64,000 nucleotides of DNA from Actinomycetota bacterium (GCA_046726275.1 JBKPAF010000040.1:174-64173); one strand, 5' to 3'. Shown: positions 5,474-62,019, counted from the first letter of the stretch. Numbers and translations: made by a program. The notes: a model not told the origin generated them from the sequence alone.

Positions 5474-7317
5474 TCGATCTCCATGGGCGCAGGCTCAGGC
5501 TCGGCCACGGCCCGTCGCATGGCGGCCGCGAAGGGGTCCTCCCCGACCCCCACGATCGGCAAACGGAAGGTGAAGGTGGAGCCGACGCCGACCTGCGTCT
5601 CGATCTCTAGCGCGCTCCCGTGCAGCTCGAGGATCTCCCCGGCGAGAGCCAGCCCCAGACCGAGGCCCTTCGTCCGGGCGGTCAGATCCCCCCCACGGAA
5701 GAACCGTTCGCCGAGGTGGAAGACCTCCTCCTCGGGGATCCCCGGCCCGTTGTCCTGGACGGCCACCACCGCGGTGCCGTCATCACTCCGAGCCGAGATC
5801 AGGACGTGCGTCCCCAGGGGAGTGTGCTTGGCCGCGTTCGACAGGAGATTCTCGATCACCCGCTCGATGAGGCCCTGATCCGCCTCGACAAGCAGGAGCT
5901 CCTCGGCTAGCACTTCGAGCGGCCGCTCCTTGAACAGGGGAGCCAGCCGCATCGCCACCTGGGCCACGAGCGCTCCCACGTCCGTCGGCTGCTTGGCCAC
6001 GTTCTGGCCCTCCGCCCCCAGCCGGGCGAAATCCAGGAGGGACGCGATCAGGCCATCGAGCGCCTTGGCGTTCCTGTTCATGGCCTTCAGGAGTTGCAGA
6101 CGCACGGTGTCGTCCAGGTCGGCCCATCGTTGCTCCAGGGTCGTTCCGGACCCCATGATCACGGTCAGGGGGGTGCGGATCTCGTGGGACGCGGTGGCCA
6201 GGAAGTCGTCCTTCAGGCGGTCGAGCTCCTCAAGCCGTTCCACCGTGTGCAGCGTCTCCTCGAACCGCTGGGCGTTCTCCACCGCCAGCCCGACCTGTCC
6301 GGCCAGGAGCTGGAACGCCTCGGCCTCGGCCTCCGGGATGGCCCGGCCGTCGCGCCTCGCTCCCAGCAGGGCTCCGGCGAGCCAGCCGTCCAGCCACACG
6401 GGGCTCGCGATCAGGGCATGGAACCCGGCGTCGAGGAGCGGCTGGGCCACATCCTCTGGGGCGGTGTGCGCCTCGTCGAGGATCACGGCCTCCCCGGTCG
6501 CGCGGACCAGCCCCGGAACGTCCCCGGTCGCAGAGTGCGTGGCCATGACGTAGTCGTCCGGAAGCCCTCGCGGATGCGTGACCACGAACGTCTCGGTCTC
6601 GTGATCGAACATGCAGACGGCGGCCGCGTCGAACCCGAGCCCGATGACGCTGTCGACGAAGCTCGCCATGACGGCGTCCTTGTCGAGCGTCATCTGACGG
6701 GCCGAGGCCGCCACCTCCGAGAGGACCGTCGCCCACCGCTCGGCCCGGTACCGCTCCTGCTGCAACGAGTCGATGTGGCCGAGGAGCTGGGCGGCCAGGA
6801 AGCTGACCAGCAGCGCCACGATCGCGAGGACCCCGCACCGGAAGAAGACCGTCGCCGCGCTGATGTCCCAGCCGGTCAGCAGGAGCACGCCGAGGTAGCA
6901 AGCGAAGGTGAAGAGGAGCAATGCGACCTGGCCGCGGGGCGGATAGGCGGCCCCGAAGAAGACTGTGGTCAGGGCGTAGAGGACGAACATCTCGGACTGG
7001 CCGCCCCCCGTGAACCCCACCGCCACGGTGATCAGCAGGATGTCCAGGACGGACCAGGCGTAGAGGGTCTTGACCCCGAGGTCGGTCGTGAAGAGGCGCT
7101 TCCATGGCAGGAGCAGGACTCCAATGGCGCCCAGGGAGGCCGAGACGATGACGGCGACGTAGGCGACGTCGTGGATCGTGCCGTGGCCGGGGAGGAGCCG
7201 AAACAGGATCAGCAGGAGCAACGCCAAAACGGTCGCCTGCAGACCGGTGCGGACGGCGCCCAGCCGGTAGGAGACCAGTGGCTCCGTGTGCGTGTTCGTG
7301 TCGAGCATGCCCCTCAC
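5470..7317 (-). CDS. sensor histidine kinase (multi-TM N-terminus, GAF, HisKA, HATPase_c), no adjacent response regulator
   Basis: ORF track. H-box FLATASHEIRTPLTVI and G-boxes DNGPGIPEEE / GLGLGLALAGE are present, with a GAF-like middle region ending in ENAQRFEE. An alternative ATG lies at 7308. Confidence 0.85.
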   Translation of the reverse strand: MRGMLDTNTHTEPLVSYRLGAVRTGLQATVLALLLLILFRLLPGHGTIHDVAYVAVIVSASLGAIGVLLLPWKRLFTTDLGVKTLYAWSVLDILLITVAVGFTGGGQSEMFVLYALTTVFFGAAYPPRGQVALLLFTFACYLGVLLLTGWDISAATVFFRCGVLAIVALLVSFLAAQLLGHIDSLQQERYRAERWATVLSEVAASARQMTLDKDAVMASFVDSVIGLGFDAAAVCMFDHETETFVVTHPRGLPDDYVMATHSATGDVPGLVRATGEAVILDEAHTAPEDVAQPLLDAGFHALIASPVWLDGWLAGALLGARRDGRAIPEAEAEAFQLLAGQVGLAVENAQRFEETLHTVERLEELDRLKDDFLATASHEIRTPLTVIMGSGTTLEQRWADLDDTVRLQLLKAMNRNAKALDGLIASLLDFARLGAEGQNVAKQPTDVGALVAQVAMRLAPLFKERPLEVLAEELLLVEADQGLIERVIENLLSNAAKHTPLGTHVLISARSDDGTAVVAVQDNGPGIPEEEVFHLGERFFRGGDLTARTKGLGLGLALAGEILELHGSALEIETQVGVGSTFTFRLPIVGVGEDPFAAAMRRAVAEPEPAPMEID

Positions 7318-7416
7318 ACAATCCTCGGCGTGCGAAACGGACGCTATAGCACCGGGAGGAGCCCGGAAAGCAGAAACCGCCGGAACCCGGAGGCCCCAGC
7401 GGCTTCTGAACTCAAT

Positions 7417-7445
7417 ATTTTAGTCGCGGCCTCGAGTGGAGTCAA
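7417..7445 (-). promoter_or_regulatory. sigma-70-like promoter candidate upstream of the sensor kinase
   Basis: The minus strand reads TTGACT (7445-7440), a 17-nt spacer, then TAAAAT (7422-7417). It sits in a locally AT-richer patch about 100 nt upstream of the kinase start. Confidence 0.4.
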
Positions 7446-7479
7446 GCCTGAACGGGCCGCGGATCGCCGCGAACCGAAT

Positions 7480-7899
7480 TCAGCGGCCTGACTGGTGGCC
7501 GTCGATCAGGCCGTAACGGACCATCTCCACGGCGATGCATCGGTTCTCCACGTAATCCAGGCCGGCGTCCTGGGCGATCCGCCTCGCTTCGTCCGAGGAG
7601 ATGCCGAGTTGGAGCCATACCGCCTTGGCGCCGATGGCCACCGCCTGCCGGACGACCTCAGGCGTCTCAGCCGAGGGGCGGAACACGTTGACCAGATCGA
7701 CGGGCTCCCGGATGTCCTCGAGCCTCCGGTAGACCTTCTCCCCGAGCAGGAGGTCCGCGTAGGGATTGACGGGGATGATCCGGTAACCGGCCATCTGCAT
7801 CTGCATGGGAACGCGCCCCGCTTCCTTGTGGGGATACCTGGAGATGCCAACCACAGCGATCACCTTCGACCGTCGCAGGATCGTCTTCGGGTCAGCCAT
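7480..7899 (-). CDS. CoA-binding protein (YccU-like)
   Basis: ORF 7480..8133 trimmed to ATG 7899. IAVVGISRYPHKEAG...GYRIIPVNP...VDLVNVFRP is a typical CoA_binding_2 domain. Confidence 0.85.
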   Translation of the reverse strand: MADPKTILRRSKVIAVVGISRYPHKEAGRVPMQMQMAGYRIIPVNPYADLLLGEKVYRRLEDIREPVDLVNVFRPSAETPEVVRQAVAIGAKAVWLQLGISSDEARRIAQDAGLDYVENRCIAVEMVRYGLIDGHQSGR

Positions 7900-7955
7900 G
7901 GCGCGCCTCACGCCTCGCACCGTTCTCGATGGAACGATACCCTCCGGCCCTCGGA

Positions 7956-8594
7956 CTAGTTGAGCGAAGGGTCGGGAGGCATGGTCGATAGGAGTGCGAA
8001 CCTGCCTCCCTTCCGAAACAAGACTTCGCTCCACAGCTTCTCCGGTTCGGGAGTGAACACGTCCTCCTCGAGAGCGGGCTCGATGATCCAGGATCCGATC
8101 TCGAGTTCTGCCTCGAGCTGGCCCTCGCCCCACCCCGCGTAGCCGGCGAATACCCGAGCCCGGCGGATGCCGTCCCGCTGCTTCCCGTCCACCTCGCCCA
8201 TCAGGAACCCGATGGAACCGAACACGATCAACCCGGCGAAGTCCGGGTGCTCCACGTCCGCCAGGACGACCGCCGACTCCGGCTGGACCGGACCACCCAC
8301 GAACACCGGGTCGCTGGGATCCACGAGATCAACGAGCACAGGCGCTGCGTCACCGACGGACACGGGGGCGGGTCGGTTGAGCACCACGCCCAGCGCGCCC
8401 TCATCATTGTGCTCACCGACCAGGACGACCGTGCGCCTGAAGTTGGGATCCATCAGGCTCGGGTCGGCGATCAGGAGCTGCCCCCGCAATCGGTCCACGG
8501 TCCCACTTTCCCTAGATCGGCTTCCGATCACGAGGATAGGATTAGCCGACCGGGCCTGCACGGGGAAGTCCGGACGCCCCACCGAAGGAGGCAA
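7956..8594 (-). CDS. YqgE/AlgH family protein (UPF0301)
   Basis: LLIADPSLMDPNFRRTVVLVGEHNDEGALGVVLNRP is the family signature. The true start may be GTG 8498, which is preceded by GGGAAAG. Confidence 0.85.
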   Translation of the reverse strand: MPPSVGRPDFPVQARSANPILVIGSRSRESGTVDRLRGQLLIADPSLMDPNFRRTVVLVGEHNDEGALGVVLNRPAPVSVGDAAPVLVDLVDPSDPVFVGGPVQPESAVVLADVEHPDFAGLIVFGSIGFLMGEVDGKQRDGIRRARVFAGYAGWGEGQLEAELEIGSWIIEPALEEDVFTPEPEKLWSEVLFRKGGRFALLSTMPPDPSLN

Positions 8595-8732
8595 CCATAG
8601 TTCAGTTGCGACCCGACCCCAGCCTCTACCCTTCGCCCAGGATGGCCGCAGAGGGTCAGGTCGCCTCGACGCGCTCTGGGCCGTCGCGCTGATCGTGGCC
8701 GCCGTCCCGGTCCTTCTCGCCTAGGGTCCCGG

Positions 8733-10682
8733 GTGCGGGCTCGGGCGCGGCTTCTGGTGCTCTTGGGGCTGGTCGGCTGCTCCGTCGTTACTGCGACGCA
8801 GGGAGGCAGTACAGCCTTCGCTCAGGCAGCCGACGAAAGGATCACGGCCTACCACATCTCCATCGACATCCAGCGAGAGGGTTGGATCGTCGTGACTGAG
8901 CGGATCGCCTACGACTTCGGCTCGAGCCAGCACCACGGCATCATCCGCAATATCCCGGCGCGATTTCGCTACGACGACCGGTCCGACCGCGTGTATCCGC
9001 TGCGGGTCCTCTCGGTCGTCGGCTCGCCGGGCACCCCCGACCAGTACGAGGTCATCAAGAGCGGGAGCGACGTCCAGATCAAGGTCGGTGATCCCGATCG
9101 CACGATCTCTGGCGAGCACAGCTACACGCTGACCTATCGCGTAGACGGAGCCCTCAACGGCTTCGCCGATCACGACGAGCTTTACTGGAATGCCGTCGGC
9201 ACGGAGTGGGGCGTGCCGATCGAAGACGTCGACGTGGAGGTGCGAGCCCCGACCTCGCTTCAGCGGATCGCGTGCTTCGCCGGCCCTCTAGGCTCGAACC
9301 GTCCGTGCGCGACGAGCGACCTGCAGGGGGACACCGCCACCTTCGCCCAGCCGGGACTCAATCCCTACGAGGCCATGACCGTCGTCGTCGGCTTCCCCGC
9401 CGGGGTGGTACCGACTCCGAGGCCCATCCTCGAGGAGCGGTGGAGCCTGGCCCGGGCCTTCTCGGCCACGCCCGTAGCCTTGGGTGTCGCGGGTGGGCTG
9501 CTGGCCCTCCTGCTGGCCGGGGTGGGCTACCTCCTGTGGGCCAACGGGCGAGACCGGCGCGCCATCGGGTCCCCCATCGACATCGCGTATGCCACCTCGC
9601 ACGAAGGCGAACAACCGGTCCCTCTCTTCGAGCAGGGCACGTACCCGGTCGAGTACGCCCCGCCCGATGACATCCGGCCCGGCCAGGTCGGGACCCTCAT
9701 CGACGAGGTGGCCAACCCCCTGGACGTCACCGCGACTATCGTCGACCTCGCCGTGCGTGGATATCTCCGCATCGAGGAGCTCCCCAAGCGTTGGTTCCTG
9801 GGCAAGCCCGACTGGCGGCTGGTCAAGTTGAAGGAAGCCGACCAGGGGCTGATCACGTACGAGCGGCTGCTGCTGGACGGCTTGTTCGAGGACGCCGACG
9901 AGGTGGGTGATGACCTGTTCATGGAGGAAGGGGACGAAGCCTCGACCGACGAGACCGAACTCGACGACAGCAGCGCGGCGCCGGCCCGGCCGGACCTTCC
10001 CGAGGCGACCGTGCCGAGCGAACCGGGGATCGCCGAGGTGAAGCTCTCCGCCCTGCGCAAGCGGTTCGGCCTGCGCCTGCGACGGATCCAGGACGCTCTT
10101 TACGCCGACGCCGTCAAGCGGCGCTGGTTCGCGGGGCGCCCCGACAGGATCCGCGCACGATGGCACACCATCGGCTTCGTCGTTCTCGCCGTGGGAGTCG
10201 GCCTGGTGTGGCTCGCCGCCGCGAGATCCCATCTCGGCCTCATCCCGATCCCTCTCGCGCTGGCCGGGCTGGTGCTCGTTTGGGCTGCCCGGTGGATGCC
10301 CAGGCGCACCCCGAAGGGCACGGGGTTGGTTCGCCGGGTCCTCGGATTCCGAACCTACATCGAGACGGCCGAAGCCCATGAGGCCCGGTTCCAGGAGCGG
10401 GAGAACATCTTCTCGACCTACCTTCCGTACGCCGTCGTCTTCGGCTGCACCGAGAAGTGGGCCCACGCCTTCGCCGGGATCGACGGACAGGTCCCCTCCA
10501 CGGCCGGGTGGTACGTGGGCGCCTATCCGTTCAACGTGGGGAGCTTCACGTCCTCGATCGACCACTTCTCCTCGGTCGCCGCGGGGACCATCACCTCGGC
10601 CGCCGCGACCGGCTCCAGCGGATTCGGGGGCGGGGGGTTCTCAGGCGGTGGCGGGGGTGGTGGTGGGGGCGGCTCGTGGTGA
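8733..10682 (+). CDS. DUF2207 domain-containing membrane protein
   Basis: ORF track (GTG). It has a signal-like N-terminus, central TM segments, and the characteristic Gly-rich C-terminus SSGFGGGGFSGGGGGGGGGGSW. Confidence 0.8.
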   Translation: MRARARLLVLLGLVGCSVVTATQGGSTAFAQAADERITAYHISIDIQREGWIVVTERIAYDFGSSQHHGIIRNIPARFRYDDRSDRVYPLRVLSVVGSPGTPDQYEVIKSGSDVQIKVGDPDRTISGEHSYTLTYRVDGALNGFADHDELYWNAVGTEWGVPIEDVDVEVRAPTSLQRIACFAGPLGSNRPCATSDLQGDTATFAQPGLNPYEAMTVVVGFPAGVVPTPRPILEERWSLARAFSATPVALGVAGGLLALLLAGVGYLLWANGRDRRAIGSPIDIAYATSHEGEQPVPLFEQGTYPVEYAPPDDIRPGQVGTLIDEVANPLDVTATIVDLAVRGYLRIEELPKRWFLGKPDWRLVKLKEADQGLITYERLLLDGLFEDADEVGDDLFMEEGDEASTDETELDDSSAAPARPDLPEATVPSEPGIAEVKLSALRKRFGLRLRRIQDALYADAVKRRWFAGRPDRIRARWHTIGFVVLAVGVGLVWLAAARSHLGLIPIPLALAGLVLVWAARWMPRRTPKGTGLVRRVLGFRTYIETAEAHEARFQERENIFSTYLPYAVVFGCTEKWAHAFAGIDGQVPSTAGWYVGAYPFNVGSFTSSIDHFSSVAAGTITSAAATGSSGFGGGGFSGGGGGGGGGGSW

Positions 10683-54425: not shown

Positions 54426-54645
54426 GAGCCCCCGCGCCCCACCCTCTTGATCGAGACGCATTGAATCACGGAGCAGCCGGTAGGGCCGCCATGTGCTGCA
54501 CGCTAGCCTGTCGGGAGACGCCGACGGCACGTCCTCTCGGCCAAAAGCCGTTTGTACGCTTTGTACAGGTGGGCGAGTAGGGAGACCAGGACGCCCCCGG
54601 CCGGCGGTGCCACCGGTCCGAACCACGTCCTACAGTGGGGTCGCC

Positions 54646-55806
54646 ATGGTCGAGAGATCCGCCTATCCCGAGAACGGCATGGGCGGGAGCGCTCTTCGGG
54701 CCGTCAGCGACGCGGTTTTGGCCATCGCGGCCGAACGTTCGGTCGAGCACGTCCTACAGAAGATCGTGGACTCGGCGAGGGGCCTGGTGCGTGCCCGATA
54801 TGCCGCGCTCGGAGTCCCCGATGGCGAGGGAGGCTTCTCGCAGTTCATCGTGTCCGGCATCAGCGACACGACTCGGGAGGCGATCGGCGAGCTCCCCCGC
54901 ACGCACGGGCTGCTGGGCGCCATGCTGGAGGACCCCGGCCCGATCCGCCTTCGGGACATCAAGAGCCATCCGGACTTCCGAGGCTGGTGGCCTGACCACC
55001 ATCCGAAGATGCGGTCGTTCCTGGGGGTTCCTCTCGTCTCCAGGGGAGCGATCATCGGCGCGTTCTACCTGGCCAGCAAGATCGGGGCCCGGGAATTCAG
55101 CCGCGACGACCAGGAGCTGGTGGAGGTCCTCGCCGCCCACGCGGCGATCGCCATCGAGAATGCCCAGCTTCTCGAGCGCAGCCGGGAGCTTACGGTGATG
55201 GCGGAGCGCAACCGGCTGGCCCGGGACCTGCACGACTCCGTCACACAGACGCTGTTCAGCGCGGTGTTCACGGCCGAGGCGGCAGCCGAGCTCCTCGAGC
55301 GGGATCCTCCCAGGGCGAAAGCCGAGGTGCGAAAGCTTCAGGAGCTGGCCAAGGCGGCCGTGCGGGAGATGCGCGCGCTGGTGTTCGAGCTGCGGCCGGC
55401 CGAGATCGAGGTCGAAGGGCTCGTTCCGACCCTGCGCAAGCACATCGGCGTGCTTCGCCGCGTCCACGGGGTGGACGTCGTTCTCAACGTCGAAGGGGCA
55501 CGACGATTGCCGCTTGGGGCCGAGCGAGAGCTCTACCGGATCGCCCAGGAAGCGATCCGGAACGCCCTGCAGCACTCGGGAGGAAGCAGGATCTCGGTCG
55601 AGATGACGATTCGGGATTCCGTGGTCAGTCTCTGCGTGAGCGACGACGGCGTCGGATTCGATCCCGAAGCCCCACAGGTCCGAGGACGACACCTCGGCCT
55701 CACCTCCATGATGGAGCGGGCGGGCCTGCTCGGTGGCGAGCTGCACATCGAGTCGGCTCCGGGGTCGGGGTCGAAGGTCTGGCTGGAGGCTCCGGTCGGT
55801 GGCTGA
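54646..55806 (+). CDS. GAF-domain sensor histidine kinase (GAF, HisKA_3, HATPase_c), cytoplasmic
   Basis: ATG 54646. A GAF region ends in [10 protein letters not shown], followed by the H-box [15 protein letters not shown] and [14 protein letters not shown]. Confidence 0.85.
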
Positions 55807-55837
55807 TCGACGGGGCCGGGCTGGCCGGGGTCCTCAA

Positions 55838-56485
55838 GTGCGGGCGGACAGGATCGAGGTCCTGATCGCCGACGACCATCCGGTCGTCCGTCATGGGCTC
55901 CGGGCGTTCCTCCAGTTGCAGGAGGACTTCGACATCGTCGGCGAGGCCGGGGACGGCCACGAAGCGGTGGCCGAAGTCCAGAAGCTGCGACCGGACGTGG
56001 TCCTCCTCGACCTTGTGATGCCGAACCTTGACGGCATCGACGCGATCAGGCAGATCCGCCAGGCCAGCCCCGACACGAAAGTAATCGTCCTCACCACATT
56101 CGCCGACGACGAGAAGGTCTTCCCCGCGGTGAGGGCAGGGGCCGCCGGCTACCTGCTGAAGGACGTCGAGCCGAAGGAGCTGGTCGATGCGATCCGCACG
56201 GTCCATCGGGGAGAGGGTCTGCTTCACCCCCGGGTCGCCTCAAAGCTGATGAGCGAGTTCGCCGGGGAGCACGAGCGGGCGGACACGTTCGAGGCCCTGA
56301 CCGACCGGGAGAAGGAGGTGCTCCGGCTCATCGCCCGGGGCATGTCGAATCGGGAGATCGCGAGGGAGCTCGTGCTCTCGGAGAAGACCGTGAAGACCCA
56401 CGTGAGCAACATCCTGGCCAAGCTTCGCCTGGCCGACCGGACGCAGGCGGCGCTGTACGCCGTGAGGAATCGGCTGGTCGACTAG
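55838..56485 (+). CDS. NarL/LuxR-family response regulator
   Basis: GTG 55838. REC shows [10 protein letters not shown] ... [11 protein letters not shown] ... GYLLKD. The LuxR HTH is [40 protein letters not shown]. Confidence 0.9.
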
Positions 56486-56599: not shown

Positions 56600-57622
56600 A
56601 TGCGATACCGACTTCTCGGCCGGAGTGGGCTGCGGGTGTCCGAGCTGGCGCTCGGCACGATGACCTTCGGCGAAGACTGGGGCTGGGGCGCGTCCAAGGA
56701 AGAGAGCCGCAAGATCCTCGATCGGTACGCAGAGGCCGGCGGCAACTTCATCGACACGGCAAACAACTACACGGACGGGACGAGCGAGCGCTTCCTCGGG
56801 GAGCTCCTGAGCACCGACCGCGATCACTTCGTCCTGGCCACGAAGTACTCGCTCACCGAGCGGCGGGAGGACCCCAACTTCGGTGGGAACCACCGCAAGA
56901 ACCTGATCCGGTCGCTGGAGGGAAGCCTTCAGCGACTGGCCACCGACCGTGTGGACCTGTTGTGGCTGCACATGTGGGACGGAATGACGCCGGTGAGCGA
57001 GGTCCTCCGGACGATGGACGATCTGGTGCGGGCGGGCAAGGTGCTGTACGTCGGGTTCTCCGACACGCCCGCGTGGGTCGTTGCTCAGGCAGTGACCGAG
57101 GCGGAGGTGCGTGGCTGGGTCAGGCCGGTCGGCATCCAGGCCCCCTACAGCGTGCTGGATCGGGGGGTGGAGCGGGACCTCCTGCCCATGGCCCGGGCGA
57201 ACGAGCTGGGTGTGACCGTGTGGGGGATGCTTGAAGGCGGCACGCTCACGGGCAAATACCGAGCTGCTGACCGCGGCCCCGCCCGCTACGAAGGAGCTTC
57301 GGAGAAGGAGCTTGCGGCGGGAGACGCCGTCGCCGAGCTGGCCGAGGAGGTCGGCCGGTCGCCGGCGCAAGTTGCCATCGGGTGGATCCGAGCCCGCCGA
57401 GATCTGGCCCAGATCATCCCCATCCTGGGTGCTCGAACCGTCGACCAGCTCGACGATGCGCTGGGCGTCCTGGAGGTCGAACTGACCGAAGATCAGGTCC
57501 GTCGGCTGGACGACGTGGCCCCGATCGACCTCGGGTTCCCCCATTCGTTCCTCGCTTCAGACCACGTGCGGGGGCTGATCTTCGGCGACACGTATCCCCT
57601 GATCGAGAACCACCGCACCTGA
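56600..57622 (+). CDS. aldo/keto reductase
   Basis: ATG 56600. MRYRLLGRSGLRVSELALGTMTFG and GNFIDTANNYTDGTSE are present. Confidence 0.9.
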   Translation: MRYRLLGRSGLRVSELALGTMTFGEDWGWGASKEESRKILDRYAEAGGNFIDTANNYTDGTSERFLGELLSTDRDHFVLATKYSLTERREDPNFGGNHRKNLIRSLEGSLQRLATDRVDLLWLHMWDGMTPVSEVLRTMDDLVRAGKVLYVGFSDTPAWVVAQAVTEAEVRGWVRPVGIQAPYSVLDRGVERDLLPMARANELGVTVWGMLEGGTLTGKYRAADRGPARYEGASEKELAAGDAVAELAEEVGRSPAQVAIGWIRARRDLAQIIPILGARTVDQLDDALGVLEVELTEDQVRRLDDVAPIDLGFPHSFLASDHVRGLIFGDTYPLIENHRT

Positions 57623-57696
57623 GCTAACCGGCGGCCAGCAGGCGATCGCCAAAGAGGAGCACGAGGAACCACCAACGGCGCGACGGCCGGTTGACC

Positions 57697-58851
57697 TCAG
57701 GACGTACTGGAATCGGGTGGGGGAACAGGTGTCTCGGCCGACACTCGCTCGAGGCGTTCGGCCAAGTGGGGCAGCCGAATACCGTTCGGGACCCATGCCA
57801 CTACCGGCAGGACCTCGGGGCAACGCTTCCTTGCCGCCCGACGAGCCTCTCCGGGGCTGACCCCAGTGCCCAGCAGCTCCCCATCCCAAAGTGCCACGAA
57901 CGAATCACCCGAGAGAGACGCACCCTGTTCGCGGATCCACCGCAGCGAATGTCGGAGCTGCGCCGCCTCTTCTTGCGACGGGGGCCCTGCCGCCTCGCCG
58001 GCCAGGCCTCTCCGATACTCCAGGACCGACCGCTCACCCCCTAAGCGTCGTCGCGAAGCCAGGTAATGCAGGGCCATCAGTGGACCGAGCGCCGCCATCG
58101 AGGGCACCCCAGTGGTGATAACGCCGGCAGAGACGAGGACGAAGAACACGGTGACCGTGGTGAGACCGAGGCAACCGGCGATCCACGCGGAGACCTTGCC
58201 GAACGCCTTGTACGAGACGAGGGTCCACAGGGTGAGCATCAACACGTCCCCCAGGCCGATCGGCGCACTGCTGGAGCCGTGTCCCCAGGAGAGGATCGGG
58301 GCCAAGGGGAGAGTACGCACCCGGGCGAAGAACTCGACCATGATCGGCAGCGTGATGGTGGCCACGAAGTCGTACACGGCCAGCGCGACACCGAACACCG
58401 CGACGTCTCTGGCTCTCATCCCGTTCTGCACGTACAGGTTGCAAACACCCACCACGCCGGCGGCGATAACCAGGTCATTCAGGGCGACGAAGACATGGAA
58501 CCCGGACCCGGACTGCCCGACGGCGTGGGCCACGATCACGTCCGCGACGACGATCGACGCCGCGGCGAGGAGCGGAATTGGGCGGGGAAGAACAGGGGCG
58601 AGAGTGAACTGGAGGACCGCCACGAAGACCATCCCCAGAACGACCGTTACCAGCCAGGTGGGCACCTTCAGGTACAGAGGGGGCAGAACCACCACCGCAA
58701 GCATCATGAACACGACATCTCTCAGGTTGTAGCGACCCACCGGTGGCCTGGCGATCCGCACGGTCCGAAAGTAGAGATGGGCGACGGCGATCGTCGCCAC
58801 GATCAGCGCTCCGACGACCAGAATGTTCACGGCGCTCGGGCTCGGCCTCAT
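57697..58851 (-). CDS. 9-TM membrane protein with YD / GLGD / PAL-like motifs plus ~115-aa soluble C-terminal domain (candidate GxGD intramembrane aspartyl protease)
   Basis: ORF track. The ATG overlaps the ligase stop (ATGA 58848-58851). Y160-D161 is in the 6th hydrophobic segment, G199-L-G-D202 opens the 7th, and P250..AALGPL258 is in the 9th. The CDS call is firm. The function is inference. Confidence 0.7.
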   Translation of the reverse strand: MRPSPSAVNILVVGALIVATIAVAHLYFRTVRIARPPVGRYNLRDVVFMMLAVVVLPPLYLKVPTWLVTVVLGMVFVAVLQFTLAPVLPRPIPLLAAASIVVADVIVAHAVGQSGSGFHVFVALNDLVIAAGVVGVCNLYVQNGMRARDVAVFGVALAVYDFVATITLPIMVEFFARVRTLPLAPILSWGHGSSSAPIGLGDVLMLTLWTLVSYKAFGKVSAWIAGCLGLTTVTVFFVLVSAGVITTGVPSMAALGPLMALHYLASRRRLGGERSVLEYRRGLAGEAAGPPSQEEAAQLRHSLRWIREQGASLSGDSFVALWDGELLGTGVSPGEARRAARKRCPEVLPVVAWVPNGIRLPHLAERLERVSAETPVPPPDSSTS

Positions 58852-60317
58852 TCGGCACTCCTCAACGGACGATGGCCGTTGTACCGAGCGAACGTCACCT
58901 CACGAAGGTCCGCCCGCACGGGCACCATCGGCGGCATGGTGACAAGCTCCTCGTGAAGATGAAGCGCGCGGAGCGGCAGCCCCTGCTCCGCCGCCCGCGC
59001 CTCGAGCCGCCGGGCGAGGCCCGCGCTTTGTCGGCGGACCAGGACGTGGAGGTCGACGCCGTCGCCAGCCGGATTCGCCGCATAGCGTAACGGCAAGGGG
59101 AGCTCCCGCTCGGACTCCAGGAGATCCAGGAAATCCCGGGTGAACAGGCGCCTGCCGTCGGCCTCCACGCTCATCCCCGCCTTGCCCAGCACCGAAGAGG
59201 CTGCGGGCATGGCCCGAAGCTCGCACGTCAACGCGTCCTGGTCGAGGGCACGGACGACGTCTCCGGTGACATAGCGGAACAGCAGGGTCGTCTCCCGATA
59301 CGGGAAGAACGGCGTTCCTACCAATGTGCCCGCCTGCCCCGGAGCGACGGCACGATAAGAATCGAGGTCCAGGACTTCCGCCAGACCCTGCTCCGGGGTG
59401 AGATGGATGTGTCCCTGGCTGCACGTCAATCCGCCCATCGGAAAGATCTCGGTCATCAGGTACCCCTCGACCACGGGCGCTCCGAACAGCTCCTCCGCTC
59501 GCATCGCAAGTCCCCGGGACAGGACCTCTCCTCCGCACACGATGCGCTCCAAGCCGAAGTCGCCCGGCCCGTACCCCAGGCGTTCGCCCGCATCAACCAG
59601 GGCGCCCAGGTAGCTCGGATACACGGTCAGCACGCTGACCTGCGGTTTCTTCCCCGGCAGGTGCACAGGAGCAGCCAGCCTCGACAGGGACACTTCTGGC
59701 TCGATCTGACCGACCGGGCAGCACGCGGTGCCGATCAACTGGCATCCCTCGATGGTGATAAGCACTGCGATGGAAGCCCGCGAGCTGATGCTTACCTGGA
59801 GCACGTCCTCGGGCCCGTAGGCCATCGTGACCAGCGAGGCAATGGCTCCCAAAGCGATCCCGATGTCGATCTCGTACTTCGAGAACCACACTGCGGTTGG
59901 GTGACCTGTTGTCCCCGTTGTGAGAGCGAGGAACGTGGGCCTGGCGTTTCGGCTCACGAAGGACTCGGGCATGGCCCGGAGGTCTTCCTTCGGGGTCACC
60001 GGCAGCTCGGCCAGGCCATCCAGGTTCACATCATCCGGAGAGAGTCCGATCCGATCGAACAGCTCCCGGTAATAGGGCGTCGACTCGTATGCCATCCGGG
60101 CCATCCCGCGGAGTCTTCGCTCGTTCACCAGCCGGCGAGACTCGGGTGAGAGCCCGCCGCCCCGAAGGAGGTCGACCTGCTCCCGGTCGAGCGGGCCGAA
60201 TTCCGCCTGCGTGGCCAGGATGTCCTGGATCAGTCGGTGAAGGTCCGCGACGCGGATCCGCTTACCGAAAGCCAGCGAGAGACCGTATCGAAGCTGGGTT
60301 AGCGCCGTCTCGAGCAT
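58848..60317 (-). CDS. phenylacetate-CoA ligase / coenzyme F390 synthetase-like adenylate-forming enzyme
   Basis: ORF 58848..60389 trimmed to ATG 60317. TTGTTGHPT (AMP-binding P-loop), GYLMTE and YVTGDVV blocks are present, with a PaaK-like length and layout. Confidence 0.8.
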   Translation of the reverse strand: MLETALTQLRYGLSLAFGKRIRVADLHRLIQDILATQAEFGPLDREQVDLLRGGGLSPESRRLVNERRLRGMARMAYESTPYYRELFDRIGLSPDDVNLDGLAELPVTPKEDLRAMPESFVSRNARPTFLALTTGTTGHPTAVWFSKYEIDIGIALGAIASLVTMAYGPEDVLQVSISSRASIAVLITIEGCQLIGTACCPVGQIEPEVSLSRLAAPVHLPGKKPQVSVLTVYPSYLGALVDAGERLGYGPGDFGLERIVCGGEVLSRGLAMRAEELFGAPVVEGYLMTEIFPMGGLTCSQGHIHLTPEQGLAEVLDLDSYRAVAPGQAGTLVGTPFFPYRETTLLFRYVTGDVVRALDQDALTCELRAMPAASSVLGKAGMSVEADGRRLFTRDFLDLLESERELPLPLRYAANPAGDGVDLHVLVRRQSAGLARRLEARAAEQGLPLRALHLHEELVTMPPMVPVRADLREVTFARYNGHRPLRSAE

Positions 60318-60404
60318 GGCAGGCGATGCTCCACCGTGAAGGGACCGATGCCCCGGTGGAGCGTGAGGGTCCGAACTCCGCCGAGGCACCGGGCCAAGAG
60401 CGCT

Positions 60405-60423
60405 CTCCCCCCTGGGGGGGAGG
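60405..60423 (-). other. G/C hairpin (8-bp stem, 3-nt loop) between the small ORF and the ligase gene
   Basis: CTCCCCCC (60405-12), TGG, GGGGGGAG (60416-23), read directly. There is no U-tract, so it is not a canonical intrinsic terminator. Confidence 0.3.
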
Positions 60424-60433
60424 GTCAGACGGA
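60422..60433. repeat. 12-nt direct repeat copy 1 (AGGGTCAGACGG)
   Basis: An exact copy of the same 12-mer occurs at 60566-60577. The two copies bracket the small ORF and its SD. Confidence 0.6.
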
Positions 60434-60439
60434 GGCCGT

Positions 60440-60514
60440 CAGACCTGGTGGTACATGACCGATGTCAAAGCGCTCAACGCGAACTTCACGTACTCGCGAG
60501 CAACTCTGAGCATC
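60440..60514 (-). CDS. candidate 24-codon ORF (MLRVAREYVKFALSALTSVMYHQV) upstream of the ligase operon
   Basis: ATG 60514 lies 8 nt after AGGAGG within GGAAAGGAGGTG, with TGA at 60440-42. It has no homology support and may be a leader peptide or fortuitous. Confidence 0.25.
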
Positions 60515-60565
60515 AGAGGCACCTCCTTTCCGGGATGGGAGGCGGCCGACTACTCTGGTAGCACA

Positions 60566-60577
60566 GGGTCAGACGGC
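60566..60577. repeat. 12-nt direct repeat copy 2 (AGGGTCAGACGG)
   Basis: See copy 1. It lies 18 nt downstream of the ALDH stop on the minus strand. Confidence 0.6.
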
Positions 60578-60594
60578 GGTCAAATCCTCACCGT

Positions 60595-62019
60595 CTACAA
60601 GGGGACGTTCGAAAGGACCATGATCCTCGGCTCGGTCATCTCCTCCATCGCGTACCGTAGCCCCTCTCGCCCGTACCCAGATTCCTTGGAGCCTCCATAC
60701 GGCATCTGGTCCGCTCGGAACGCGGACATGTCGTTCACGATCACCCCGCCCACCTCGAGCTCGCGGTGGGCCAGCATGGCTCGCTCGATGGATGACGTGA
60801 ACACCCCGGCCTGAAGCCCGTAGGGCGTGCTGTTCACCTCGGACAGTGCTTCCTCGAACGTCTGGTATGGCTGAACGGTGATGACTGGCCCGAAGACCTC
60901 CTCGCACCGCACCTTCATCTCCGGCGTGGTGTTCGCCAGGATCGTGGGGACGTACACCGGTCCTTCCCGGCGGCCTCCCGTCAGGAGCTCGGCGCCCTGG
61001 GCCACCGCCTCGTCGACCCATACCTCCACCCGTTCCACGGCGCCCGCATCGATCAGCGGCCCCACGTCCACCGTCGGATCCATGGGGTCCCCCACCTTCA
61101 AGCTTTCCACCTGCTTGACCAGCCTGGCGACGAAGTCGTCGTAGACCTCGGACTGGATCAAGACCCGCTGCACCGAGATGCAGGACTGCCCGGCCTGATA
61201 GAAGCCGCCGATGGCGATCCGCTGGGCGGCGTGATCGAGGTCGGCGTCGTAGTGCACGATGACGCCAGCGTTGCCGCCGAGCTCGAGCGTGACGTGCTTT
61301 CGCGGATCCAGGCCCTTCAATCTCCACCCGATTCCGGAGCCGGTGAACGTGAACTTCTTGAACCGGCGATCCTCGACCAGCTTCTGGGCCCGTTCGCTCG
61401 AGATGGGCAGGACCGAGAGCATCCCTTTCGGCAGGTCCGTCTCGTCGAAGAGCTCGGCCAGGGCCAGCGCTCCCAGAGGGGTCACCCCGGCGGGCTTCAC
61501 CACGATGGGGGCTCCGACCGCCAAGGCCGGAGCGATCTTGTGCGCCACGAGGTTCACCGGGAAGTTGAACGGGGAGATCCCGATCACCGGACCGAACGGA
61601 AACCTCCGGACGATGCCGGCGCGGCTGCCCAGGCTCGGCTCGGTGTCCAGCGGCAGGAACTCCCCTCCGAAGCGGCGCGCCTCCTCGGCGGCCCACCGAA
61701 ACGTTGAGACCGACCTGCTCACCTCGACCTTGGACCACTTGATGGGCTTGCCGCCCTCCCGCGCGACGATCTCGGCGATCTCGTCCACCCGCTCGCCGAT
61801 CCGGCGCGAGATGTGCATCAGGCCCTCCGACCGGGCGTGGGTCGGCAGATGCCTCGACTCTTTGAAGGTCCGGGCGGCGCTGGAGACGGCTTCCTCCACG
61901 TCGGCGTCCGTGGGAACGCCCAGTTCGGCCACCACACTTCCGTCCCAGGGGCTCTTGACCTCCAACGTCCCCTGGCCGGTCCGCCAATCCCCTGCGATGT
62001 AGTAGGGCTTCGCCGTCAT
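60595..62019 (-). CDS. NAD(P)-dependent aldehyde dehydrogenase
   Basis: ORF track. FPFGPVIGISPFNFP, ELGGNAG and YQAGQSCIS (catalytic Cys) are present. Confidence 0.9.
   Translation of the reverse strand: MTAKPYYIAGDWRTGQGTLEVKSPWDGSVVAELGVPTDADVEEAVSSAARTFKESRHLPTHARSEGLMHISRRIGERVDEIAEIVAREGGKPIKWSKVEVSRSVSTFRWAAEEARRFGGEFLPLDTEPSLGSRAGIVRRFPFGPVIGISPFNFPVNLVAHKIAPALAVGAPIVVKPAGVTPLGALALAELFDETDLPKGMLSVLPISSERAQKLVEDRRFKKFTFTGSGIGWRLKGLDPRKHVTLELGGNAGVIVHYDADLDHAAQRIAIGGFYQAGQSCISVQRVLIQSEVYDDFVARLVKQVESLKVGDPMDPTVDVGPLIDAGAVERVEVWVDEAVAQGAELLTGGRREGPVYVPTILANTTPEMKVRCEEVFGPVITVQPYQTFEEALSEVNSTPYGLQAGVFTSSIERAMLAHRELEVGGVIVNDMSAFRADQMPYGGSKESGYGREGLRYAMEEMTEPRIMVLSNVPL

Follow-up and report, generated by a model that had tools for sequence, protein, structure and literature searches.

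A nine-transmembrane bacterial protein of predicted presenilin/signal peptide peptidase fold, encoded with a PaaK-family ligase and a conserved small peptide

The stretch of DNA analysed here, referred to as the window, comprises 64,000 nucleotides from an Actinomycetota bacterium (GCA_046726275.1, JBKPAF010000040.1:174-64173) and carries on its reverse strand three adjacent genes for a membrane protein, an adenylate-forming ligase and a small peptide. The membrane-protein gene (57697-58851) encodes a 384-residue protein with nine transmembrane (TM) segments, which, on the evidence of its modelled structure, very probably adopts the fold of presenilin and signal peptide peptidase (SPP) and is a putative di-aspartyl intramembrane protease of the GxGD type. 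The ligase gene (58848-60317) encodes a 489-residue enzyme of the PaaK family. The small gene (60439-60513) encodes a 24-residue peptide, MLRVAREYVKFALSALTSVMYHQV, that is a candidate substrate or precursor of the protease.

A sequence-only reading of the window had described the ligase and the membrane protein, and had ended the unit at position 60317. The conserved peptide gene was missed, and the unit therefore extends past that point. To our knowledge, and in keeping with PMC2947513, the described proteases of the presenilin/SPP type come from eukaryotes and archaea, and the bacterial GxGD enzymes so far are prepilin peptidases. In the literature searched, no paper linked proteases of the presenilin type to gene clusters of bacteria, to precursor peptides or to ligases of the PaaK type; the sequence-only reading, too, knew of no described system pairing such a ligase with a GxGD-type membrane protein. 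If the structural model is correct, what is new is a GxGD intramembrane protease belonging to a new bacterial family and held in a new, fixed genetic partnership.

Fold, motifs and orientation of the membrane protein

An AlphaFold2 (AF2) model of the membrane protein was built from 29 homologues without templates (predicted local distance difference test score (pLDDT) 84.8, predicted TM-score (pTM) 0.73). It contains nine long helices, spanning residues 7-30, 43-62, 65-84, 92-111, 116-142, 147-167, 200-217, 219-241 and 251-270, and an additional short helix at residues 170-178. Residues Tyr160 and Asp161 lie inside helix 6, the GLGD motif of residues 199-202 opens helix 7, and the sequence VPSMAALGPL (residues 249-258) spans the beginning of helix 9. 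These helices bear out the arrangement drawn by the sequence-only reading, which had placed YD in the sixth of nine TM segments and GLGD at the start of the seventh. The codons of Asp161 (58369-58371) and Asp202 (58246-58248), like the positions of the ligase and membrane-protein open reading frames (ORFs), were recovered unchanged by ORF arithmetic.

A word-indexed homologue search returned 29 relatives of the membrane protein, every one of them a hypothetical protein. An exhaustive profile search of 1.84 billion cluster representatives returned 561 matches at E ≤ 1e-3 and 191 at E ≤ 1e-30, which makes this a sporadic family, with about 560 of the 1.8 billion representatives (clusters at 50% identity). 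Conservation was assessed in an alignment of 111 near-full-length homologues, which share 25-53% identity with the window protein. Asp161 is retained in 108/111 and Asp202 in 109/111, so that both aspartates, whose invariance the sequence-only reading had proposed as a check, are conserved in at least 97% of the set. Gly199 is kept in 110 homologues, Gly201 in 104 and Tyr160 in 101 (with Phe in a further eight), and residues Pro250 and Pro257, whose codons delimit the P-S-M-A-A-L-G-P stretch at 58081-58104, are each kept in 107/111. Together, the residues of the YD, GLGD and TM9 proline motifs are 91-99% conserved. The 41-residue spacing between the aspartates of the window protein likewise recurs as 41-43 residues in 103 of the 111 homologues. 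Departures from aspartate occur in three sequences: P0128 (Glu161), P0146 (Gln161 and Glu202) and P0173 (Glu161 and Val202).

The family signature reads LxxYDxxAT in TM6, GLGDLL in TM7 and P[VA]MxxLGP in TM9. The stretch in TM9 had been described as PAL-like, and it is a candidate counterpart of the PAL motif insofar as Pro250 and Pro257 are conserved and fall in the SPP register, with Pro250 aligned to the proline of the SPP PAL; its own sequence, however, is P-[VA]-M rather than PAL, with Met in 79/111 homologues and Leu in 14/111. Further invariants are specific to the family, namely an RPPxG loop motif, Asn125, Asn138, Gln142-x-Gly144 (within NLxxQxG) and LPxAP. Residue Asp45 (codon 58717-58719) is the only one invariant in all 111 homologues, and is thus better conserved than the catalytic-type aspartates. 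It follows the near-invariant RPPxG motif (Arg35-Gly39, 58735-58749) in predicted cytoplasmic loop 1. We know of no counterpart of Asp45 in presenilin or SPP, and it might be a ligase-docking or regulatory site.

Sequence comparison leaves the membrane part of the protein unplaced. Neither Pfam nor NCBIfam recognised it in the window protein, and Pfam searches of the 29 and of the 111 relatives, with E-values up to 10, gave no match to the A22 models (PF01080, PF04258 and PF06550) or to A24. Similarly, phmmer and a family-profile hmmsearch against all Protein Data Bank (PDB) sequences found no presenilin; the only matches were chitinases (E 2.4 over a 30-residue stretch), which were dismissed as chance. 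Structure comparison, by contrast, was selective. In a Foldseek search of the PDB, ranks 1-16 were all human presenilin-1 (PS1, in gamma-secretase), human SPPL2a or the archaeal homologue PSH (4HYG), at a probability of 1.00 or 0.99 and with TM-scores on the target of 0.56-0.70; the best E-value was 3.5e-05, to PS1 (8oqz_B). These matches end in a cliff, as rank 17 is an unrelated soluble protein with a probability of 0.08. No transporter and no A24 prepilin peptidase appeared in the top 50.

The register of the motifs was examined further with hhalign. Aligned with PS1 alone, for which the query sequence was a full-length match to PDB 5a63_B, the 111-sequence profile paired only 16 columns around the GLGD motif (iGLGD with KLGLGD385). 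A comparison profile for SPP was made from 12 vertebrate SPP sequences, all carrying PF04258; it is shallow and of low diversity because the best 120 homologues were vertebrate HM13 only. Against this profile a single alignment of 160 columns was obtained, with a P-value of 0.011 and a probability of 3.9%, in which YD161 pairs with YD219, GLGD202 with GLGD265, Pro250 with the proline of QPAL, and Pro257 with the proline seven residues later (LVP). These statistics are weak, yet all three motifs fall where the fold match predicts. The sequence-only reading had proposed a presenilin/SPP-like, A22-type protein, and the structure search upholds it by returning only presenilin, SPP and PSH and no transporter. 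The profile searches it had suggested as a check gave no match to an A22 Pfam model. The protein is accordingly assigned to the presenilin/SPP fold and its catalytic motif set, and not to any existing sequence family. Its relationship to A22 is visible solely at the level of fold and motif, and either extreme divergence or convergence is possible.

The A24 type IV prepilin peptidases, which process pilin-like substrates, are the known bacterial GxGD proteases, and the sequence-only reading had named them as enzymes that also use the motif. An enzyme of this kind is nevertheless highly improbable here. No Peptidase_A24 Pfam match was obtained for the window protein or its 111 relatives at E-values up to 10, and A22 structures fill Foldseek ranks 1-16, with no A24 structure in the top 50. 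Furthermore, the associated peptides described below have no prepilin G/F-type leader, and no pilin-like or other pilus genes were found in the neighbourhoods.

From the fold and the retained motifs, we infer that the membrane protein is probably proteolytically active. It could instead be an inert descendant of the presenilin fold, serving as a channel or as a scaffold that anchors the ligase, with its motifs persisting as relics. The absence of any A22 relationship in sequence searches, the loss of one or both aspartates in P0128, P0146 and P0173, and the position of the most conserved residue, Asp45, outside the classical motifs would all be compatible with such a protein. However, the aspartates, the GxGD glycines and the TM9 prolines are kept in 94-99% of homologues whose mean column identity is only about 28%, which points to selection on the catalytic apparatus and makes an inert scaffold improbable.

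Orientation was predicted from the distribution of basic residues across the 111 sequences. Loops 1, 3, 5 and 7 and the segment after TM9 hold a mean of 8.7 Lys and Arg residues, compared with 2.1 for the N-terminus and loops 2, 4, 6 and 8, and the positive-inside rule, used here as the sole criterion, predicts an N-out/C-in topology. This predicted orientation is that of SPP and the reverse of that of presenilin. In the modelled structure, the TM6-TM7 loop, with a short pair of strands just before GLGD, would face outward, and the C-terminal tail would be cytoplasmic.

The soluble tail (approximately residues 271-384), which the sequence-only reading could not place in a family, folds in the AF2 model as a small beta-beta-alpha-beta domain. 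Within it, residues 318-355 (57787-57900, reverse strand) form a DUF5678-like domain. The tail can tentatively be placed through its relatives, 15/111 of which match DUF5678 at the aligned position (best E 3.5e-6); the window protein itself falls short of the Pfam gathering threshold (12.1 bits against 23.2, E 0.18). In two homologues, a cupredoxin/plastocyanin-like C-terminal domain replaces the DUF5678-like tail. Separately, a weak Copper-bind ORF lies 1.3 kb downstream of the three genes at locus L007.

Linkage of the three genes and the small peptide gene

The genomic setting of the membrane protein was collected at 34 loci, reached through six membrane-protein homologues and by scanning a single genome for each species, with the window copy included. 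These loci come from Acidimicrobiia, Solirubrobacteraceae, Streptosporangium, Nonomuraea, Embleya, Kitasatospora and Actinacidiphila, and from Chloroflexia, Anaerolineales, Ktedonobacterales, Thermomicrobiales and one Brocadiaceae metagenome-assembled genome (MAG). The module hence spans three bacterial phyla: Actinomycetota (including Streptomyces), Chloroflexota and, in one genome, the Brocadiaceae. The ligase gene lies immediately upstream of the membrane gene on the same strand in 34/34 loci. Conversely, both of the two loci reached through distant ligase homologues, in Streptoverticillium reticulum (40% identity) and Streptomyces sp. AM 4-1-1, also have the membrane gene, whose start again overlaps, and the peptide. 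With one further locus on a plasmid, the pairing of ligase and membrane protein that the sequence-only reading had observed in one genome is conserved across all those sampled.

In the window, the junction between the two larger genes reads gaATGAgg, so that the ligase stop codon overlaps the membrane-gene start codon, as had been noted earlier, and the two genes are translationally coupled. An alternative, longer ligase ORF begins at a GTG and reaches 60389; the ATG at 60317 is taken as the true start, since ligase homologues begin at a conserved MLxTALxQLRYG. A promoter scan of positions 57500-60700 found no sigma-70-type promoter. A terminator scan gave two sites only, both inside coding regions, with no excess over shuffled sequence.

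The small peptide gene was first seen at locus L002, where three called genes of 33-34 amino acids stand in tandem upstream of the ligase, and the same type of ORF was then recognised in the window and at other inspected loci, likewise upstream of the ligase. A hidden Markov model (HMM) of 21 such peptides was searched against 9281 six-frame, stop-to-stop segments from every locus and from the whole window. Matches adjoin the module only, with E-values from 1e-12 to 1e-3, except for one copy at 0.015 and one weak match at 0.11; elsewhere in the 9281 segments, nothing scored better than E 2.8. The window peptide matched with an E-value of 6.5e-12 and is the only match in the 64 kb. Peptide genes of 22-34 residues were found in approximately 32 of 35 distinct loci, in one to five copies per locus. 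All three loci fetched later carry the peptide gene, which on a 174-kb Streptomyces plasmid is uncalled in RefSeq. Diverged tandem copies, two to five in number, occur at L002 (3958-4374), L015 (4551-5150), L016 (5951-6847), L026 (3046-3252) and L028 (2971-3187); at L016, the five copies are downstream of the protease gene.

The peptides share the consensus M-x-K-x-x-x-R-Y-x-[KR]-Y-[AV]-L-[SA]-x-L-[SA]-x-[VI]-[GA]-F, after which come 3-13 variable residues. A basic N-terminus leads into a short hydrophobic helix, rich in Ala, Ser, Thr and Gly and ending in the conserved Phe, and a variable tail follows, so that conservation covers the N-terminal two-thirds but not the tail. The N-terminal part has a net charge of +2.5, and the best 12-residue hydropathy averages 1.9. 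Tails end in Asn in 10/33 peptides, in Gln in five and in Ser in five, and several actinobacterial tails contain Cys. The distribution of charge in the sequence predicts that the N-terminus stays inside, which corresponds to the type II orientation accepted by SPP-type enzymes. Searches of the peptides against NCBIfam and Pfam gave no family match, a single below-threshold match to Vta1_C being disregarded, and the peptide motifs appear in no paper of the literature searched.

The peptide genes also have their own expression signals. In the window, the peptide is read on the reverse strand from an ATG at 60513 to a TGA stop at 60439-60441. A Shine-Dalgarno site read in the sequence, GGAAAGGAGGTG (60520-60531), has a GGAGG core that ends 8 nt ahead of the ATG, and GGAGG-type sites at the proper distance precede nearly every peptide copy. 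The spacer from the peptide stop to the ligase start (60332-60445, reverse strand) is structured, with a minimum free energy of -65.8 kcal/mol (z -2.64), and contains the hairpin CUCCCCCCCAGGGGGGAG at 60405-60422. A hairpin directly after the peptide stop recurs across loci (mean z -2.3 against shuffled sequences, with 12/21 below -1.64). Some of these stems are 14-16 bp long, and one is followed by a T-run. The window hairpin has no T-run and so went uncalled by the simple terminator scan; it is likely a partial terminator or a processing site. A strongly translated short gene, a partial terminator and then enzyme genes form a familiar layout of operons for bacteriocins and for peptides made on the ribosome and modified after translation (RiPPs). 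The architecture seen here is similarly RiPP-like, in that short precursor-type genes with a conserved and a variable part stand beside enzymes.

The small ORF might be merely an upstream ORF or attenuator of the ligase operon, with the membrane protein acting as a housekeeping SPP-like enzyme that cuts unrelated membrane proteins or signal-peptide remnants. Its position in most loci, immediately ahead of the ligase gene and with a stable hairpin behind it, is what an attenuator would show. The gene is not confined to that position, however, since at least eight loci have it just past the downstream end of the membrane gene, one of them on the opposite strand (L012, L013, L015-L018, L029 and L031 have downstream or opposite-strand copies). 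Moreover, it is the amino acid sequence that is conserved across phyla, each copy has its own strong Shine-Dalgarno site, and copies may be multiple. A housekeeping role is in turn at odds with a family that is sporadic and has one copy on a Streptomyces plasmid. This explanation is consequently very unlikely, and the peptide gene is very probably a genuine component of the module.

The ligase and the neighbourhood of the module

The ligase belongs to the ANL superfamily and, within it, to the PaaK-like structural subfamily, without being an equivalog of PaaK. Pfam AMP-binding (PF00501) matches at 36.3 bits against a cut-off of 29.9, and the NCBIfam equivalog cut-offs lie far above the scores obtained (71.4 against 646.3 for TIGR02155, PaaK; 90.6 against 700 for NF041878). 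The best PDB sequence match is PaaK1 (2y27; 1.4e-17), in which residues 66-365 of the query align with residues 28-322 of the chain. The AF2 model of the ligase (pLDDT 90.4) gave PaaK1, BT_0428, AjiA1, NatL2, ClxA and the 2-hydroxyisobutyryl-CoA ligase HCL as top Foldseek matches, with TM-scores on the targets of 0.72-0.78; PaaK1 itself matched with an E-value of 2e-27 and a TM-score of 0.76 on the target. A helical N-terminal region precedes the PaaK-aligned stretch, and the ligase has a conserved TTGTTG motif for ATP binding.

NatL2, AjiA1 and ClxA are PaaK-family enzymes that form esters or amides directly, without CoA, so the ligase reaction need not end in a CoA thioester. In public records, these ligases are labelled 'phenylacetate--CoA ligase family protein'. 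In the loci examined, the ligase gene always adjoins the protease gene and never paa genes, and the label is probably misleading. Any specific chemistry proposed for the enzyme should be taken as tentative.

Two features of the ligase sequence stand apart. The subfamily has four invariant residues, Cys299, His303, His305 and Cys365, which form a C-x3-H-x-H set with a distant Cys (GGxxCxxGHxH ... CEL); the aligned PaaK1 sequence lacks the histidines. From sequence, this set could be a metal site or the site of a covalent (thioester) intermediate. The N-terminal helix of the ligase, MLETALTQLRYGLSLAF (60276-60317), and the peptide, MLRVAREYVKFALSALT, also share [KR]-[YF]-[AG]-L-S at residues 10-14. 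The peptide HMM gives the ligase N-termini no score, though a motif regular expression matched them (LRYGxS), and homology is not claimed; the likeness may be coincidence, or it could reflect mimicry or a shared docking site.

Beyond the three genes, neighbourhoods vary. In the window, the neighbours include two aldehyde dehydrogenases, a class III aminotransferase, a PucR regulator and a PotA-like ABC ATPase, so that the polyamine-type genes mentioned in the sequence-only reading are indeed present. All-against-all clustering of ORFs from 32 non-redundant loci, however, found no conserved neighbour other than an AfsR/SARP-like regulator, and no exporter. The polyamine context is therefore considered incidental, and a functional link to the polyamine and aldehyde dehydrogenase genes was rejected. 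The regulator, a BTAD/NB-ARC/TPR protein of about 1000 residues, occurs in 9/32 loci from both Actinomycetota and Chloroflexota (L006, at 7057-10059, and L010, L020, L021, L022, L027, L028, L030 and L031). Downstream in the window, beyond a convergent aldo-keto reductase gene, positions 54493-56485 encode a GAF/HisKA_3 histidine kinase and a LuxR-type response regulator. A link between this pair and the module is unsupported, as homologous ORFs recur in one other locus each (L025 and L017). Membership of a known anti-phage system was likewise rejected, since PADLOC defence models match neither the ligase nor the membrane protein.

Several loci suggest that the module moves horizontally. One copy lies on a 174-kb linear Streptomyces plasmid (L037, NZ_CP108387.1, 76124-78758), where RefSeq lists the membrane gene as hypothetical. 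At L007, genes for a phage-type integrase and of the IS66 family lie a few kb from the module, and at L036 the module is about 1.5 kb upstream of genes for DarT and a Macro-domain protein. A single Acidimicrobiia MAG contains two copies of the whole module, with identical peptides, on separate contigs (L008 and L009), which could represent either a recent duplication or an assembly duplicate.

Proposed mechanism, comparison with known systems and implications

The sequence-only reading had suggested that the ligase and membrane protein might activate and process a peptide. With the small gene upstream of the ligase, that guess gains a concrete candidate, and on balance the peptide is considered to be the protease's substrate. 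It is proposed that the peptide would sit in the membrane as a type II protein, with its N-terminus in the cytoplasm, and that the cytoplasmic ligase would dock on the cytoplasmic face of the protease. The ligase would then spend ATP on activating a carboxylate for amide or ester formation on the peptide. This carboxylate could be the peptide's own C-terminal group, a new C-terminus made by cleavage, or that of a small acid to be loaded on the peptide. The C-terminal carboxylate of the peptide, whether the original one or one made by cleavage, is the most economical candidate, because the termini are the only groups that are chemically invariant across homologues.

The di-aspartyl protease, for its part, would cut inside the hydrophobic helix of the peptide. 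Such a cut would part a conserved N-terminal leader or anchor, serving as the recognition element, from the variable C-terminal portion. As the TM6-TM7 loop and the entrance to the active site are predicted to lie on the outer side, cleavage would set the variable part free outside the cell, and release by cleavage would explain why no conserved exporter accompanies the module. The product may be a small signal or an antimicrobial peptide. Taken whole, this scheme of a self-contained three-gene module, separate from polyamine catabolism and with peptide, ligase and protease acting as described, is evenly poised between being right and being wrong. The broader proposal, that the module is an undescribed type of bacterial peptide-maturation and export pathway in which intramembrane cleavage replaces a dedicated transporter, is put forward more tentatively.

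Several observations weigh against this scheme. The protein has no sequence-level membership of A22, with negative results in the Pfam, NCBIfam and PDB searches and only the low hhalign probability given above. Two or three loci have no detectable peptide gene: L020 and L023, which are short or truncated contigs, and L011, where the match is weak. The peptide's hydrophobic segment covers about 14-17 residues beyond the K/R-Y motif, which is short for a TM helix, and the peptide has no invariant side-chain nucleophile, as Lys may be replaced by Arg, Tyr by Phe or His, and Ser by Ala or Gly. Finally, the substrate of the ligase could be a small molecule that has nothing to do with the peptide.

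A fuller version of this last objection holds that the ligase and the membrane protein both act on a small molecule or lipid, for example by activating an aromatic or fatty acid and then transferring or processing it at the membrane, and that the small ORF encodes an accessory membrane subunit or a regulator of the complex, much like the small partners that other membrane enzymes have. PaaK-family enzymes of known substrate use small aryl or alkyl acids, and a peptide that lacks an invariant nucleophile and whose conserved part outweighs its variable part resembles a structural partner. This explanation must nevertheless accommodate the conservation of both presenilin-type aspartates, for a motif set with no known non-protease function. 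It must also accommodate two to five diverged tandem copies of the peptide gene at five loci, which would be unusual for a stoichiometric subunit, and the variable tails and terminator-like hairpin, which resemble the architecture of precursor genes. On these grounds, it is regarded as unlikely, and processing of the peptide by the protease is preferred.

Among characterised enzymes, SPP is the nearest to the window protein in fold, motifs, orientation and independence of partners. SPP and the SPPL proteins (A22B; human HM13 and SPPL2a, 9k92/9k93) have the same nine-TM fold (TM-score 0.64-0.70 on SPPL2a), with YD in TM6, GLGD opening TM7, and a proline where TM9 begins, a second proline coming seven residues on. 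The N-out/C-in orientation, here predicted, is also shared. SPP is described as cutting type II substrates with no need of partner proteins (PMC2947513), and the candidate peptide is predicted to be type II, like the substrates of SPP. The window family differs from SPP in being bacterial, in its lack of matches to PF04258 and PF06550 and its hhalign probability of 3.9%, and in reading P[VA]M rather than PAL in TM9. It adds Asp45 and the RPPxG, NLxxQxG and LPxAP motifs, is always accompanied by the ligase and mini-peptide genes (with the few exceptions listed above for the peptide), and in some members has a DUF5678 or cupredoxin tail.

The archaeal PSH (MCMJR1, 4HYG) is the nearest prokaryotic example and stands alone; it shares the fold (TM-score 0.66 on the target, at a Foldseek probability of 1.00). 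In PSH, YD and GxGD lie on adjacent TM helices, and its physiological substrates are unknown (PMC2947513). PSH falls in recognised A22-type families, whereas the window family does not; the latter is, moreover, bacterial, has 41-43 residues between its aspartates, and is encoded beside a ligase and a candidate substrate. Presenilin-1, within gamma-secretase, gave the best Foldseek E-value (8oqz_B, 3.5e-05), and its residues Gly382-Asp385 align with the GLGD motif. Presenilin is inserted the other way round, cuts type I substrates, depends on nicastrin, APH-1 and PEN-2, and has a long TM6-TM7 loop that is itself cleaved by endoproteolysis (compare PMC2947513). None of these presenilin-specific features, in partners, long-loop endoproteolysis or orientation, is seen in the window protein.

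The ligase shares the two-domain ANL/PaaK fold and the AMP-binding domain with PaaK1 (2y27), NatL2 (6tm4), AjiA1 (6wuq), ClxA (9s45) and HCL (6hdw). It differs from them in its low identity (about 20%), its extra N-terminal helical region, and its own set of residues Cys299, His303, His305 and Cys365.

Pathways with partly similar logic are known from other bacteria. In the agr system (AgrD and AgrB) and in the enterococcal pheromones cut by Eep, small precursors with an amphipathic or hydrophobic segment that associates with the membrane give rise to a short, species-variable peptide that is freed by a membrane peptidase. AgrB is a cysteine peptidase, Eep belongs to the S2P family and cuts pheromones from signal peptides, and neither system includes an ATP-dependent ligase. 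The nearest concept overall is that of TMcin from Staphylococcus aureus, a membrane-resident ribosomal peptide matured by an intramembrane protease, in which the RiPP precursor TmcA is cut by TmcP, encoded in the same cluster (PMC13252029). TmcP differs from the window protein in being a zinc enzyme of the S2P clan (DUF3267) rather than an aspartyl GxGD protease, and the TMcin cluster encodes an ABC exporter, a disulfide-forming protein and an escort protein, and no ligase (PMC13252029). The TmcA precursor, with its 45-residue leader, is also much longer than the window peptide (PMC13252029).

A bacterial presenilin-fold family that sequence models do not detect would widen the known range of this fold. 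The module encodes a candidate substrate of 22-34 residues beside the protease, whereas for PSH no physiological substrates are known (PMC2947513). With the candidate next door, a tractable host and just three small genes could suffice to test how a presenilin-fold enzyme recognises its substrate. The annotation of such modules is also affected, as the peptide gene is systematically missed and the membrane protein stands in RefSeq as a 'hypothetical protein'. For natural-product biology, actinomycetes would hold an unannotated three-gene peptide module, sometimes beside SARP-type regulators and with a ligase chemistry that is undescribed. If the proposed relationship is true, the membrane protein would be the first protease of the presenilin fold whose natural substrate is genetically defined and encoded alongside it.

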